A DNA stretch of 36,193 nucleotides, taken from UHGV virus genome UHGV-0315046. The stretch is one strand, 5' to 3'. Each line of letters opens with the position of its first letter. The first letter of the stretch is position 1. The position numbers and the translations under genes were made by a program. Source of the stretch: a virus. The notes beneath the pieces were generated by a model. That model was given only the letters and a program-made list of their open reading frames with translations. It had not been told where the DNA came from and did no database searches. Positions 2,710 through 8,050 of the stretch are shown one piece after another.

Positions 2710-3624
2710 TCAGTAGTTATGTACTGAAGGAGGTAATTCTTTATTCTTAAGTCTCATCCATGCGGAAAGATTCGTTGGTCCGTCTGGCTCATTAATATCA
2801 ATATCTCGTGTGTGGTTTATTAAAACGTCTCTCGCCATTCCTATAACATAAGAGAACTCATGACCGTAGTCGTAGCATCTGCCGGAATAGTTCGATTGAA
2901 TTTGTTTCAGCGCCGGATACAGTTCGCGGAATAATGCCTGTGAGCGGTTGGCATAATCCCATAACCATACAAGGCTGTTTGCTTCTTTTGCAGAAAGCTC
3001 GTTGGTTTTCTTCTCTTGTTTGCCGATTAACTCGCCTTCAAGCGGAACGCGAGCTGCAAGTGACAGAGCTTCGGTAAACTGCTCATCGCTGATTTCTTTG
3101 TATGAACACCCAAAATGAGATTTCAGTGACGACCACATGGTGATCATCGCCTTAGCCTGTTTTTCTTTTGGCAGAGACTGACCGCGACTCATGACGAGTT
3201 GTTTAATGGCTTCCTGCTGTTCAGTGGTGATTTTTCCCGGCAACGCCTTTTTAGCTTTCGGTGTATTTCCGTAAGACCCCGTTTTACGAATGGATGGCAA
3301 AACTTCAGCTGTCACCCATTTGCGGAATTTGTGCGGGACTGAACCTTTATTGACGGCATCACGGCAGCGCAGAACCAATGTATACATACCTGATTCGCTC
3401 ACAATGCTTAAATTCTGCTCACCACCAAGGGTGTAACTTAAAGTTACTCCCTTCTCATCGTCATCAAGTGCAGTAAGCGCCTTGCGTGAGTTAGTCAGGG
3501 TTAAAGCATCACAAACATCTTTTGCTACAAACCACGGCTCACCGCACTTGTTGATGACGCGGATTTCACTGTCGCCGAATTTGAAGATGGTGAAATCGTT
3601 TTGTGCCTTTGCTATACTTTTCAT
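2710..3624 (-). CDS. ant: Antirepressor Ant (immI region)
   Basis: 304-aa ORF with an N-terminal Bro-N/AntA-like segment ([15 protein letters not shown]), placed between arc/mnt and the tailspike as in P22 immI. Confidence 0.7.
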
Positions 3625-3686
3625 GTCAATATTTCCTAATCCGATTTGTTGATACCGAAGCCCTGACTGTTACAGCAGTTGGGGCT

Positions 3687-3878
3687 TCAACTTTTATCAG
3701 CGACTTCAACTGGAATACTCTCTAGCTTTTCATCTAACCCCTTCTCGCCATGCATGAAAATAACAATATCTGTAACGCATGAGTCACAAATTGCTTCTTC
3801 GGTATTTTTTGACACAACAAAGCCCCTGCCAGTCGTTTCTTTACTACACCCACAAAAACAACATCTGCGGTTTTTCAT
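3687..3878 (-). CDS. Small Cys-rich (zinc-ribbon-like) protein between arc and ant
   Basis: 63-aa ORF with CCFCGC...CDSC (CxxC...CxxC); its ATG overlaps the arc stop as ATGA, suggesting translational coupling. Confidence 0.45.
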   Translation of the reverse strand: MKNRRCCFCGCSKETTGRGFVVSKNTEEAICDSCVTDIVIFMHGEKGLDEKLESIPVEVADKS

Positions 3879-4027
3879 ACCACTACCCCCTCTCTCTTCA
3901 GGCTGTCCAGCAATCGCTTAATCACTTCCGAGTTAAACGACCGGCATTCTTCTTTGGCCTTTCCTGTAATCGCATCTTTTAGCGACTGAGGCATTCTCAC
4001 CAAAATTCTGCTAACTTCTTTTTCCAT
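3875..4027 (-). CDS. arc: Arc-like ribbon-helix-helix repressor
   Basis: Start refined to the internal Met (MEKEVSRILVRMPQSLKD...) preceded by GGTGG. RHH pattern hydrophobic-R-hydrophobic-P...NGRS-NSE resembles P22 Arc; divergent to mnt. Confidence 0.7.
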   Translation of the reverse strand: MEKEVSRILVRMPQSLKDAITGKAKEECRSFNSEVIKRLLDSLKREGVVV

Positions 4028-4136
4028 ACCGCCACCATGTGAGTTATTGTGAATCACAAACATATCACTGTGACTATATCAAGTCAAAATTTTTTTGAAT
4101 ACACTGTGATATCAATGTGATTATCACGGTGTAAGT
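4028..4136. promoter_or_regulatory. Divergent Pant/Pmnt promoter-operator region
   Basis: 109-bp spacer between divergent arc and mnt starts containing palindromes TTGTGAaTCACAA, TGATATCA and GTGATtATCAC, consistent with Arc/Mnt operators. Confidence 0.5.
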
Positions 4137-4391
4137 ATGACGAAGGTTAGAGACATAGCCCCATATAGCGTAAGAATGCCAGATAGCCTCAAGCGCGACC
4201 TGACCATAAGAGCATCGAAAAACGGACGCTCATTAAATTCAGAAATAGTTATGATCTTGCAAGCTGCTATTGATGAAGAAAAATCACCAAGATCAATAGA
4301 AGGTTTTGCTCAACAAGAATCTGAAAAATTTAGGGAGGCTCTTCTTAAGACTCTCAGTAGCATGTACGGAGAAGATAAAAAACCCACCTGA
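4137..4391 (+). CDS. mnt: Mnt-like ribbon-helix-helix repressor
   Basis: 84-aa ORF; N-terminal RHH (YSVRMPDSLKRDLTIRASKNGRSLNSEIV) resembles P22 Mnt in length and motif. Confidence 0.75.
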   Translation: MTKVRDIAPYSVRMPDSLKRDLTIRASKNGRSLNSEIVMILQAAIDEEKSPRSIEGFAQQESEKFREALLKTLSSMYGEDKKPT

Positions 4392-4399
4392 CGGCGGGT

Positions 4400-4849
4400 T
4401 TAGTCAAACATAGTGTTTCTAAAGTCTCTCGCATACCCTGCTAACACTCTCATTCTATTATGATTGTTAGCAGACATGTGAGCTACAGGATGAAAAAGAG
4501 CAATCAATGAATACCTGTTCTCATCAAAAAGATTTTGTGCATAAACGAGAGCGGTATTGGATGTTTTATGCCACTGCAACTTTTGCGGTGTGCTGATATC
4601 TGTGCCATTTTTTATTGGCTCAAATTTATTTTCACCAATTGCTAAATGAAGGTGCATAAGACCTGCATCTTCAATATCAGGAGGACGATGATAAGAGGTG
4701 TCTCTGCCAAAATAGCTGGGCAACGTTCCCGTAGACTTGTAGATGATAAAATCATCTACAAGTGTTTGTTTTAAATCAGGAAACTCAACAAAAACCGGGG
4801 AGAAAAAATAGTCAAAACTATCCTGATTATATTCCACGGTTACTTGCAT
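4400..4849 (-). CDS. YafO-like toxin candidate (ribosome-dependent mRNA interferase family)
   Basis: 149-aa ORF. Motifs DFIIYKSTGTLPSYFGRD, MHLHLA, ALVYAQNLFDE and NNHNRM align with my recollection of E. coli YafO; not verified by search. AT-rich relative to flanking structural genes. Confidence 0.45.
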   Translation of the reverse strand: MQVTVEYNQDSFDYFFSPVFVEFPDLKQTLVDDFIIYKSTGTLPSYFGRDTSYHRPPDIEDAGLMHLHLAIGENKFEPIKNGTDISTPQKLQWHKTSNTALVYAQNLFDENRYSLIALFHPVAHMSANNHNRMRVLAGYARDFRNTMFD

Positions 4850-4857
4850 GTTTTACC

Positions 4858-5424
4858 TCAGTGGAAGTTACCAGAGTGAAACACACGAGTCCCGTGCTCA
4901 GCAAGCGCACGCAAACCAGCCATATCTACGGAACTATCAAAAACAACCGGAACACATGAGCGTTGTTTAATAAGACTATTCAGGTTAGTTACGGCAGATC
5001 TAGCATCAGCAACAACGATATAGATATCTCTTGCGATCTCTTTAAAATCAGCAGAAGCTTCTTTGAATACCGATTTCATTGCCCCTTCAAGTCCTCTCAA
5101 TTGATGCTCTATCAATCGAGACTTTTCTGGTTCAATGATAGACAACACATTGTCTACATTCTCATCGGTAGCGTTTGCAAGAACACGATAAGCGTATTTC
5201 AGCATTCGAGACAATTCTTTAATCGAAGACACCGCCTCATGAAGCTCATCATTAGCCCGTTCACTGCTGAATGAGGATTGATGGTAAGCGTGCTGAACGT
5301 TATCAGTAACAACCACCTCACAACTGAACGCAGAAGCTTGCTGTAATAGCAAACCTATTGCGACTCCAGCTTTGGCAGCGTTCAAGCTAAACATTTCATC
5401 AATCCCATTAGTCTCATTGCTCAT
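4858..5424 (-). CDS. Hypothetical protein, upstream partner of the YafO-like gene
   Basis: Start refined to MSNETNG..., preceded by AAGGAGG at ~6 nt. 188 aa, predicted mostly helical, no recognised motif. Stop lies 9 bp before the downstream gene start, same strand. Confidence 0.6.
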   Translation of the reverse strand: MSNETNGIDEMFSLNAAKAGVAIGLLLQQASAFSCEVVVTDNVQHAYHQSSFSSERANDELHEAVSSIKELSRMLKYAYRVLANATDENVDNVLSIIEPEKSRLIEHQLRGLEGAMKSVFKEASADFKEIARDIYIVVADARSAVTNLNSLIKQRSCVPVVFDSSVDMAGLRALAEHGTRVFHSGNFH

Positions 5425-5599
5425 ACAAACCTCCTTCTTATCGGAGATTATCAATAGCTATGTATCCATTGAATACACGCTATGCGCAGTAATTCTACGT
5501 CACGTGATATCATTATGCAACCACCGTTCTATCACCGACTAACTTTACTCCCACTCCTATACATCATCTGGTATCCTGCTCAAAACTAAGGAGGTTGGT

Positions 5600-5929
5600 G
5601 TGCTTGAATGGTTTCTGTTGGCTGCATTAGTCGTTTCTGGTTTGGTGTATGAGTATCGAATGCACTCTCTAACAAAAAAAATAGGAATTCTAGAAAACGA
5701 ATATTGTGCTCTCAAATCCTCACTGGAACGTGAGCAAGGGGACTTAAAAATCTCTCTGTCTAGCATTGAGCGTTCTATAGAGAGCTTAGAGGATAAGGTT
5801 GAGCGTATAAAGAATGAGGATATTCATGATATTAAGGACGACATATCCTTCTTAAAATCTTGGTTGAAAAATGTTGGGAAAATTGCCACATCAACACGAG
5901 ATAAGCTCAATCCATCCATGGATGACTAA
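5600..5929 (+). CDS. Small membrane-anchored coiled-coil protein (moron)
   Basis: GTG start preceded by AAGGAGG. N-terminal hydrophobic helix (LEWFLLAALVVSGLVYEY) followed by heptad-like charged repeats; stop abuts the convergent ejection-protein gene. Confidence 0.55.
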   Translation: MLEWFLLAALVVSGLVYEYRMHSLTKKIGILENEYCALKSSLEREQGDLKISLSSIERSIESLEDKVERIKNEDIHDIKDDISFLKSWLKNVGKIATSTRDKLNPSMDD

Positions 5930-8050
5930 TTACTCCTGTGCCATTCCGCTTAGCGATGCCACAATTCCAGCTCTTGCTAAACGCTGGAACTCTTCGTTTC
6001 CTAGTGCCTCGCGTATTGCTTTTACGGCGGCCTTATTTGCCATAAATCTGCGTTCCGCCGCCGCTAATGCACCATCACTTGCCCCAACCTTAACTGCCTT
6101 TGTTGCCTCTTGAACAGCCTTTTCAATAGCGTAACGACCGCTTCTAGTTGCGGATAATTTCGCTATCGCTCCTTTTGCCATTGCATCAATTGCCCCACCT
6201 GCAGCGCCACCCGCTATTGCTCCAATAACGCCTCCTCCAGAGAACCCTGCGATAGTGCCAGTAGTTCTAAAAGCGCCAGACAATGCGCTCTCTAAAACTG
6301 GATGAAGGCCATTCTCAAGAGTGCTAATGGCTGGCATAGATCGCCCTGTCTGTTCAACATATCGAAGTGGCTTTGTTGCTGCTCGTGCAAGTTCTCCGTA
6401 TGAACTTGTAATCCTGCCAAGTTCTGGAGAATATCGACTAATTGCCTTCACGTTTTGTGGGGTAAGAATAGTCGCGATATGCTTAATTCCAGCCTCTTCA
6501 GACTTACCTCCGCGTACCCCTTGCGACATTGCATCTTGTAATATTGATGCAATTGCTGGCGCGCGTTCCGACTCAGGTAGGGCGCTTATTATTTTATGGA
6601 ACTGACCTGTTCCACTTTTTGCTGAACCCTGTAACGCCTTAGATCCATTAGTTACCAACTGATCAGTTGCAAGGTCTCTACCAAACGCTGCTTCAGCCTG
6701 TTCTTGTGCTGTAAATCTTGCCTTTGACAGATCATTAGCTTTTTGCCAGTCATCAAGAAAACCGCCATTTTGAGCCATTATGCGCATATCTTCCGTTGCT
6801 GCATCACGAAGCTCAGCCATGCGCCTTGCCGTATTTGCCTCACCAGACCTTATATACTTCTGCTCTGCGTCAGCAAGTTTACTTCGCCATGCCTTCATGG
6901 CATCAAACGTGATTCCTTTTTTACCAGTTTTAGCATAAGCAGATGCGAATTGTTTCATCTCAGGAGTTAGCGGCATGCCAGCCAAAATATCACCCTGAAT
7001 TGTAGCGTTCAGGTTTGACATTCTGGCCTTTGCGTCAGGCATCGTGGAGCGGACGCTATCCCATGCGGCCTTTTCTGAATTTTTCATTTTATCAATACTT
7101 GCCAAAACCCTTTGTTTTATGGCTGCACTTTTTTCTGATGCAGTTCCTGCTTCAGCCCCAAACTCATCCAATGCTGAGTTAAATTTCGACTCTATTTCAC
7201 TGAATGCTTTGGTGTGTGCATCCTGTGTAATTCCGGGCTTTGACGCCAGAATCCCCTCCGCCTGAGCAAGACCACGACTACCTGATCTCATGCCAGGAGT
7301 TAATGCGTTGATATCTATTCCAGCAGTATCTGCTGCTTTTGCTATTTCGTCTGACACATTAGCTGACTGTCTGGCAATAATCTCTCTTCCTGTACCAGAC
7401 TTTGCCATTTTCGAAACATCAGCAGCGGAATTTATTGCCCCGCCACCAAGAACTTGAGGTGATTTAGAGGTTAAGATCCTTCCAGCCCCAGAAAGTATCC
7501 CCTGAGCACCAATATTGATACCACTGTTAATGGCAGCATTTTGTGCAAAGTCGCCCTCCTGATTTGCAGCATCAGCAAGAGAACCTGCAATCATGTTTCC
7601 TGCGGAACCGATATCTCCAGCGAGCTTTGCTGGCGCTCCAGCAGCTTTTGCTGCTGTGCCAATTGGCAGGAGATACCCACCAATTGTTTCACCGGCTTGC
7701 GCGTAAGGGTCTGTCGGTCGATCGACTGGACGATAGACATCATCCAAAACCTTGGGGCCACCAAGCCCATGGCTGATTGCATTAATCAGACTTGCGCCAC
7801 CCTGCAATACGTCAAATGGTATGTTTACCAGACCACGGCCAGCCTGTTCTGCAATTTGCCCTGCACTTTGACCACCAGTGAGCCAGTCAGTGGCTTTTCC
7901 TACCAGAGATTGTTCTTCTGGCTGCGATTGGTTTTGAGTGGATTGATCACCAGAAGACAGCATCTGAGCAATGCGACGTGCTCCCTCAGTATCGCCGGCA
8001 GCATCAGCATTCCTTAACGCCGTCATCAATTGTTCACGACTATAGGCCAT
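5930..8050 (-). CDS. Ejection (internal virion) protein, P22 gp16-like
   Basis: 706-aa Ala/Gly-rich protein at the gp16 position after the gp20 homolog; longer than P22 gp16 (~609 aa). Confidence 0.7.

Follow-up and report, generated by a model that had tools for sequence, protein, structure and literature searches.

A YafO-family toxin gene and its strictly linked partner gene form a candidate toxin-antidote cassette in P22-like and other prophages

The closest described counterpart of the locus reported here is YafN-YafO of Escherichia coli K-12, a type II toxin-antitoxin (TA) pair of the SOS-regulated dinB operon, in which a gene in the antidote position is followed, after a short gap, by a toxin gene of Pfam family PF13957. 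Canonical type II modules share this layout of two adjacent, co-oriented and co-inherited genes. A further point of reference is provided by the toxin-antitoxin-chaperone (TAC) systems, HigBA with a SecB-like chaperone, where an mRNase of the RelE/ParE superfamily is met by an antidote tied to protein export; TAC modules are reported to act in abortive infection (PMC11980606, PMC4257090). P22 SieA and the exclusion morons (HK97 gp15, cor) are comparable in another respect, as cargo placed right after ejection or tape-measure genes and with a predicted envelope product. In prophages, YafO genes are currently reported as orphan toxins and the gene upstream as "hypothetical". Here, we describe a two-gene cassette in the virus genome UHGV-0315046 (36,193 nucleotides, hereafter the window), a P22-like (Lederbergvirus-type) prophage whose closest relatives are E212, JEP4, Kapi1, CUS-3, Sf101 and HK620. 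In this cassette a YafO-family toxin gene follows a partner gene of 188 aa, and proteins identical to those of the window are encoded on at least 1000 E. coli contigs. The constant association of a YafO clade with a single, uncharacterised family of partners amounts to a new pairing of toxin and partner. Both window proteins are full-length members of protein families, PHROG 8416 (partner) and PHROG 1651 (toxin), that have no functional annotation, linkage or signal peptide on record, and neither the partner, nor its strict linkage to the toxin, nor its apparent export signal was found in the literature searched. We think it probable, if only slightly so, that the cassette, as prophage cargo, is a toxin-antidote module of a non-canonical kind, in which the partner would bind the toxin directly as its antidote or controller. 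The features of the cassette, in window coordinates, are the following.

4858-5424, minus strand: partner gene (ATG start, 188 aa, PHROG 8416), its predicted layout being signal peptide, disordered linker, four-helix bundle
4400-4849, minus strand: gene of the YafO-family toxin (149 aa; RelE/ParE (BECR) superfamily), which would cleave mRNA as a ribosome-associated endonuclease
5329-5424, minus strand: Sec-signal-like N-terminus of the partner (codons 1-32), with an n-h-c pattern in the sequence
5430-5436, minus strand: Shine-Dalgarno sequence of the partner, AAGGAGG, 5 nt ahead of the ATG
5492-5520, minus strand: putative sigma-70 promoter, TTGCAT-17 nt-TAGAAT, picked by eye; the spacer holds the palindrome TCACGTGA
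4850-4860, minus strand: partner-toxin junction, with the TGA stop at 4860-4858, the spacer at 4857-4850 and the toxin GAGG at 4859-4856
4380-4401, both strands: bidirectional intrinsic terminator, a 9-bp stem with 5 GC pairs and a T-run on the minus strand

The toxin half of the finding is already known annotation: the NCBI pipeline (PGAP) labels the protein "type II toxin-antitoxin system YafO family toxin". An earlier note on this DNA, made from the letters alone, had seen YafO-like motifs in it, and the profile search bears this out, with a match to the PF13957 YafO_toxin model (78.9 bits where the cutoff is 25; E 3.4e-22) that covers profile positions 3-101 of 101. The toxin is 38% identical to K-12 YafO (BLASTP, E 7e-20) and keeps the family-invariant residues: in an alignment of 12 sequences including K-12 YafO, twenty invariant positions are common to the two proteins, among them D33, F34, Y37, P44, F47, G48, D50, Y53 and P56, followed by H66, H68, L101, Y103, E110, P121 and H124. 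By its sequence, the protein is a bona fide member of the YafO family. Yet it differs from K-12 YafO in scoring under the cutoff of the NCBIfam equivalog model NF007377 (79 against 153 bits) and in an extra N-terminal segment of ~25 aa, carried by the whole clade, and for these two reasons we assign it to a separate YafO subfamily and not to the orthologues of K-12 YafO. The K-12 pair also sits in a chromosomal SOS operon, whereas the cassette is prophage cargo. The match to phrog_1651 is full-length (E 1e-47), PADLOC-DB 2.0 holds no model matching the toxin, and a sequence search against solved structures returned nothing. The subfamily comprises 179 clusters at 90% identity, the members listed all measuring 138-169 aa, with hosts in Enterobacterales and Pseudomonadales: Escherichia, Salmonella, Citrobacter, Klebsiella, Pantoea, Yersinia, Photorhabdus, Providencia, Morganella, Pseudomonas, Stutzerimonas and Halopseudomonas, including extraintestinal and avian pathogenic (ExPEC/APEC) E. 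coli of ST95 type, Proteus and P. aeruginosa.

In the intact copies examined, the partner always lies directly upstream of the toxin, in the same order and at a gap of a few nt. The toxin-side scan used toxin-based patterns, with one genome per species plus IMG/VR, and exact-protein look-ups were added. Among the species genomes the partner stands directly upstream in 13 of 15 loci, the other two or three being frameshifted or truncated. The 80 IMG/VR loci divide into 68 with a partner and 12 at a contig edge, with none in which the toxin lacks it; all assessable loci thus carry the pair (68/68), and the gap measures -4 to 16 nt in 67 of the 68, mostly 3-16 nt. The same arrangement is seen in P. 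aeruginosa, Photorhabdus, Yersinia and Morganella. Searching from the partner side gives a matching picture: homologues at 17-65% identity are each followed, 8-18 nt downstream, by a PF13957 gene, in HK639, PhiR40_1, Pseudomonas phage D14L, myovirus-type prophages of Proteus, a P2-like island, siphovirus-type prophages and Salmonella P22-like prophages. The earlier note had left room for the partner being an unrelated moron not co-conserved with its neighbour, which these counts contradict. Complete E. coli genomes carry the cassette in 55 of 5426 cases, with both open reading frames (ORFs) intact and at least 99% identical in 55/55. Pairwise identities of partner and toxin correlate (r = 0.80; Mantel test, 0/2000 permutations), as in a co-inherited type II module, the partner diverging faster than the toxin, as is usual for antidotes (65 vs 89%, 37 vs 61% and ~20 vs ~37% identity). 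Both genes are under purifying selection: the ratio of nonsynonymous to synonymous substitution rates (dN/dS) is about 0.10-0.13 for the partner and 0.04-0.06 for the toxin, with dS saturated. In three Pseudomonas spp. chromosomes (L032, L033, L035) both cassette genes are frameshifted or truncated; they decay jointly.

The junction of the two genes is consistent with this linkage. The gap, given earlier as 9 bp, is a spacer of 8 nt (GGTAAAAC), and the GAGG of the toxin overlaps the partner TGA and the first 2 nt of that spacer; since this Shine-Dalgarno sequence sits over the partner stop codon, the arrangement indicates translational coupling of the toxin to the partner. For the partner itself the ORF list offers an alternative TTG start at 5454, which would give 198 aa and has no comparable ribosome-binding site; because AAGGAGG (5436-5430) precedes the ATG at 5424 by 5 nt, the latter is most plausibly the start, and the strong ribosome-binding site previously assigned to the first gene is indeed there. 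AAGGAGG is also present in the orthologous Salmonella, HK639 and metagenomic (L016) loci, and the positions of the promoter hexamers are kept in the Salmonella and L016 loci. The terminator at 4380-4401 is common to the toxin gene (minus strand) and to the convergent mnt-like gene (plus strand). An Rfam scan and a tandem-repeat search of the cassette returned no match and no repeats, and an RNA antitoxin or ToxI-like repeats were set aside on that basis.

The partner has little in common with described antitoxins. It has no match in Pfam or NCBIfam, none of 25 family members carries any Pfam domain, and its sole match in PADLOC-DB 2.0 is a weak one, through coiled coil, to the tail of ZorA (E 0.004); the match to phrog_8416, a PHROG without assigned function, is full-length (E 2e-96). 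The earlier statement that the upstream gene has no ribbon-helix-helix (RHH), helix-turn-helix (HTH) or Phd-like features therefore stands: no HTH, RHH, AbrB or Phd domain is found by Pfam in the partner or in the 25 family members. Compared with YafN, to which it shows no similarity (E 36), the partner is twice the size, lacks the Phd/YefM fold and has a signal-like N-terminus. For its family, an exhaustive profile search of 1.84 billion representatives yielded only 24 clusters, almost all of 167-190 aa, and the partner alignment has no conserved stretch of 7-10 residues. In an AlphaFold2 (AF2) model built on a 25-sequence alignment (mean confidence, pLDDT, 82), residues 54-188 form a confident four-helix bundle that runs through the C-terminal helix, leaving no disordered toxin-wrapping tail, whereas residues 1-50 are of low confidence, with a helix at 16-37 followed by a disordered linker. 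Thus, unlike the antitoxin of a canonical type II module, the partner is a protein of 188 aa without a DNA-binding domain, with a bundle reaching to the C-terminus and a signal-like N-terminus. Fold searches against PDB and BFVD returned generic helical bundles only, and sequence searches against solved structures only chance fragments of parvalbumin and ATP synthase. The NCBI label of the upstream gene is "hypothetical". In phage PhiR40_1 (PV340560; L004, 222-761) the homologue is labelled "YafM antitoxin" in GenBank, and we found no supporting publication. The yafM of K-12 is an unrelated gene, so that the label clashes in name.

The signal-like N-terminus, a Sec-type pattern that opens nearly all partners and is clear in most clades, was missed by the earlier note. 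The window partner starts with an 18-residue, net-acidic n-region ending in K18; next come an h-region of 9 residues, AGVAIGLLL, and the c-region QQASA, and cleavage might occur between ASA and FSC. Clearer examples are found elsewhere in the family: MNPFNAITFAALCGPLAQPAAMA followed by QEF in Enterobacter, Pantoea and PhiR40_1; SLALAIAAVCALMAGSAAWA followed by DAP and LLTLALGISAAFLFVATTPVSA followed by TG, each closing a longer N-terminus, in Pseudomonas; AVCALMAGSAAWA, again followed by DAP, at the end of a further clear case; MKAIKAILTALATGVAAVPSIDC opening the Proteus protein; and MNLSLRNCLAVVLFGGVLSVPSFSA followed by GY in IMG/VR. The sequences of these N-termini are unrelated, yet the n-h-c/AXA architecture (charged n-region, then hydrophobic h-region, then a c-region of small-x-small type) is kept between clades; an architecture that persists where sequence does not is the mark of targeting signals and not of folded elements. 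A crude rule-based heuristic passes 28 of 39 partners (72%) against 21 of 230 control ORFs (9%); several of the failing partners are obvious signal peptides without K or R, and most of the passing controls are evident lipoproteins, outer-membrane proteins or a spanin. The AF2 confidence profile (low over 1-50, high over 54-188) is consistent with a signal followed by a linker. Export of the partner is thus probable for the family as a whole and uncertain for the clade of the window, as judged from these sequence patterns. Three variants of the signal were considered. A start at the invariant internal Met11 would make the signal more orthodox, but a good ribosome-binding site is lacking there; a lipoprotein reading of SAFSC in the window clade, by a PROSITE-style lipobox, fits the closest six sequences but was rejected for the family, since position -1 is H, P or Y in the relatives resembling HK639; and the twin-arginine motif of a Tat signal is absent from the partner N-termini.

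How would such a pair work? In the toxin-antidote model, a free YafO-family mRNA endonuclease would arrest translation, and the partner, made first and in translational coupling with the toxin, would be its dedicated antidote. Newly made partner would neutralise YafO in the cytoplasm, and the free partner pool would be removed continually by export and not by proteolysis alone, so that protection would depend on ongoing partner synthesis. An infecting phage that shuts off host expression, or loss of the element, would then free YafO; mRNA would be cut and translation would stop, with abortive infection or addiction as the outcome. Toxicity, binding, export, trigger and anti-phage effect are what we infer in this scheme. 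Several observations weigh against it. An antidote role and a signal peptide are in tension, for an exported protein cannot remain on a cytoplasmic toxin, and no precedent for an exported antitoxin was found in the literature; no paper on the partner-toxin pairing or on the cassette accessions was found either. None of the defence-system models of PADLOC-DB 2.0 is matched by the cassette. The signal of the window's own clade is weaker than elsewhere, with its long net-acidic n-region and an h-region of only 9 residues, and the putative promoter scores under the threshold of a consensus scan and is weak by consensus.

A tentative form of the toxin-antidote model, possible in our view but on the doubtful side, takes the signal at face value: the antidote would be genuinely Sec-exported, with neutralisation coupled to export or with a periplasmic domain reporting on the envelope. 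In the first version the antidote pool would be drained through the translocon and not by proteases, giving a fast trigger once synthesis stops; in the second, the periplasmic domain would sense, for example, incoming ejection or tape-measure proteins. The TAC systems offer a parallel in function, and we draw it as functional speculation only: TAC modules have three genes and a cytoplasmic antitoxin with a C-terminal chaperone-addiction segment, whereas the cassette has two genes, no chaperone gene and an N-terminal signal peptide with AXA motifs. If the partner is indeed exported, the assumption that protein antitoxins are cytoplasmic would be challenged, and the cassette would be a simple system of two genes in which to study the coupling of a toxin to envelope or secretion-pathway state. 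If export-coupled or envelope-reporting control is true, it would be a mode not described for any toxin-antitoxin or abortive-infection system.

The genomic contexts of the cassette bear on a different explanation of the signal. The cassette is a mobile unit, a classic moron, that moves between unrelated prophage cargo slots. HK639 and a Pantoea prophage have it between their tape-measure and minor-tail genes, a Pseudomonas prophage ahead of a tape-measure gene, and Proteus and Photorhabdus inside myovirus baseplate or tail clusters; other neighbours are integrases, an OLD-family nuclease, DndB and ArdA. Placement beside DNA-delivery genes and among defence and TA genes is suggestive of a possible role in phage-phage conflict. 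The partner might accordingly be an exported envelope protein with a role of its own, such as superinfection exclusion or the sensing of DNA-delivery proteins, and not a stoichiometric antidote, with YafO controlled otherwise, for instance by staying inert until unexported precursor accumulates when a phage perturbs the membrane or Sec. This we consider unlikely, although the textbook signal peptides across the family, the compact helical mature domain without DNA-binding domain or toxin-wrapping tail, the recurrence of the cassette next to tape-measure or ejection-protein genes and the presence of sieA in the corresponding P22 slot all speak for it. Exclusion by HK97 gp15, cor and P22 SieA acts at the step of DNA entry, and we count these proteins on the same side. 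Neither cassette protein resembles SieA in Pfam or PHROG searches, there is no sequence or fold similarity to the exclusion morons in general, and the cassette adds a predicted cytoplasmic nuclease that these do not have. Against such an envelope role, the tight translational coupling and the 100% co-occurrence argue for a physical or stoichiometric relationship between the two products; no transmembrane component would pass a periplasmic signal inward; and a conserved free YafO nuclease needs a neutraliser, for which the cassette has no other conserved neighbour. The idea of the earlier note that the upstream protein could be a sensor may yet be right.

The opposite explanation keeps both proteins inside the cell. 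The cassette would be a type II pair of the ordinary, cytoplasmic sort, whose antitoxin has a novel fold and is turned over by proteases, and the hydrophobic N-terminus would be no export signal but a structural, oligomerisation or chaperone-recruiting helix. Gene order, coupling, the faster divergence of the partner and the TA-rich neighbourhoods are classic type II features, and published surveys report many unknown partners for YafO toxins. The N-terminal stretch xFDxxKTAAxxGLLMQQ is unusually conserved for a signal peptide (across the E. coli, Salmonella and HK639 clades), and the n-region of the window partner is acidic. Yet the n-h-c/AXA architecture survives across clades with unrelated N-terminal sequences, the AF2 model shows no confident packing of residues 1-50 against the bundle, and the partner has no DNA-binding domain for autoregulation. 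Sec-type signal peptides across the partner family make a plain cytoplasmic antitoxin doubtful, and we give this explanation a low probability. Were the partner merely a new cytoplasmic antitoxin fold, the result would be a useful annotation and another example of partner swapping in the RelE/ParE superfamily.

The surroundings of the cassette in the window hold the following features.

5930-8050: gene 16
5600-5929, plus strand: hkcB-like ORF (109 aa), with likeness to HK620 hkcB
4137-4391, plus strand: Mnt-like Arc-family RHH repressor of immI (PF03869 Arc, E 7e-9)
3875-4063: Arc
3626-3692, plus strand: full-length sar antisense RNA (Rfam RF00262, 69 bits, E 1e-13)
2710-3624: Ant

In P22 the gene order is 16-sieA-orf59a-mnt-arc-ant-9; in the window it is gene 16, the hkcB-like ORF, the cassette, the mnt-like gene, Arc, sar RNA and Ant. 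The sar RNA is placed between a small ORF and ant and is the only Rfam RNA found, and since it is full-length, the immI region (mnt-like, arc, sar, ant) is judged complete. The description of the cassette as occupying a sieA-equivalent slot holds for the region and not for the literal position: it is the hkcB-like ORF, convergent to gene 16, that fills the exact sieA position adjoining gene 16, and the cassette adjoins it. The product of this ORF has a hydrophobic helix at the N-terminus (MLEWFLLAALVVSGLVYEY) and a tail of coiled coil; it finds no match in Pfam and might be an exclusion protein of another kind. Among related P22-like prophages, HK620 has hkcC at the cassette position and phage 611R6 an unrelated 322-aa gene; the position is a variable cargo slot. 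With the immI region laid out in this way, it is highly improbable that the Mnt-like RHH protein is the real antitoxin or that the cassette is a decaying, functionless remnant: the protein does match a FitA-like RHH antitoxin model, and several prophages have Arc-family genes close to the cassette, but genomic context rejects it, as the gene is the immI mnt homologue, with arc, sar RNA and ant for neighbours, converges on the toxin gene and is not co-transcribed with it, and has no RHH counterpart beside the cassette in most other contexts, among them HK639, PhiR40_1, D14L, Proteus and Pseudomonas. Against decay, both cassette genes are intact, as in all 55 E. coli genomes, and under purifying selection in every lineage examined.

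Some further neighbours were observed along the way. In Yersinia mollaretii prophages (L124/L125, 1328-2176) the cassette comes directly after a ParD-ParE pair and an extra ParD, the whole TA cluster sitting between tail-tube and tape-measure genes. Defence-associated neighbourhoods are also seen in a P2-like element (L011, 876-2633), where the cassette adjoins an OLD-family nuclease (AAA_15/OLD-like TOPRIM), and in Phytobacter (L025, 4447-5583), where it adjoins a DndB gene. Four contexts that otherwise differ, in Proteus (L009, 3893-4675), the P2-like island (L011, 4130-4603) and the Morganella islands (L126/L127, 1387-2256), have a tRNA_anti-like gene (PF12869; 157-289 aa) immediately upstream of the cassette; this gene may be a moron that travels with it or, on occasion, a third component. 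Within the window, a 63-aa ORF on the minus strand between arc and ant (3687-3878) has many paired Cys residues (CCFCGC...CDSC), as a small zinc-ribbon protein might; Pfam gives no match, and the label at homologous positions of related prophages is "hypothetical". A near-tandem repeat of 11-12 nt (TGTGATTATCAA, 1.9 copies, 4105-4126), immediately upstream of the mnt-like gene, may be the Mnt/Arc operator region. Finally, in the prophage of the E. coli type strain ATCC 11775 (L001), a 178-aa gene annotated "ATP-dependent Clp protease proteolytic subunit" (7441-7977) lies between the mnt-like gene and the cassette, and an IS21 element separates ant from the tailspike gene.

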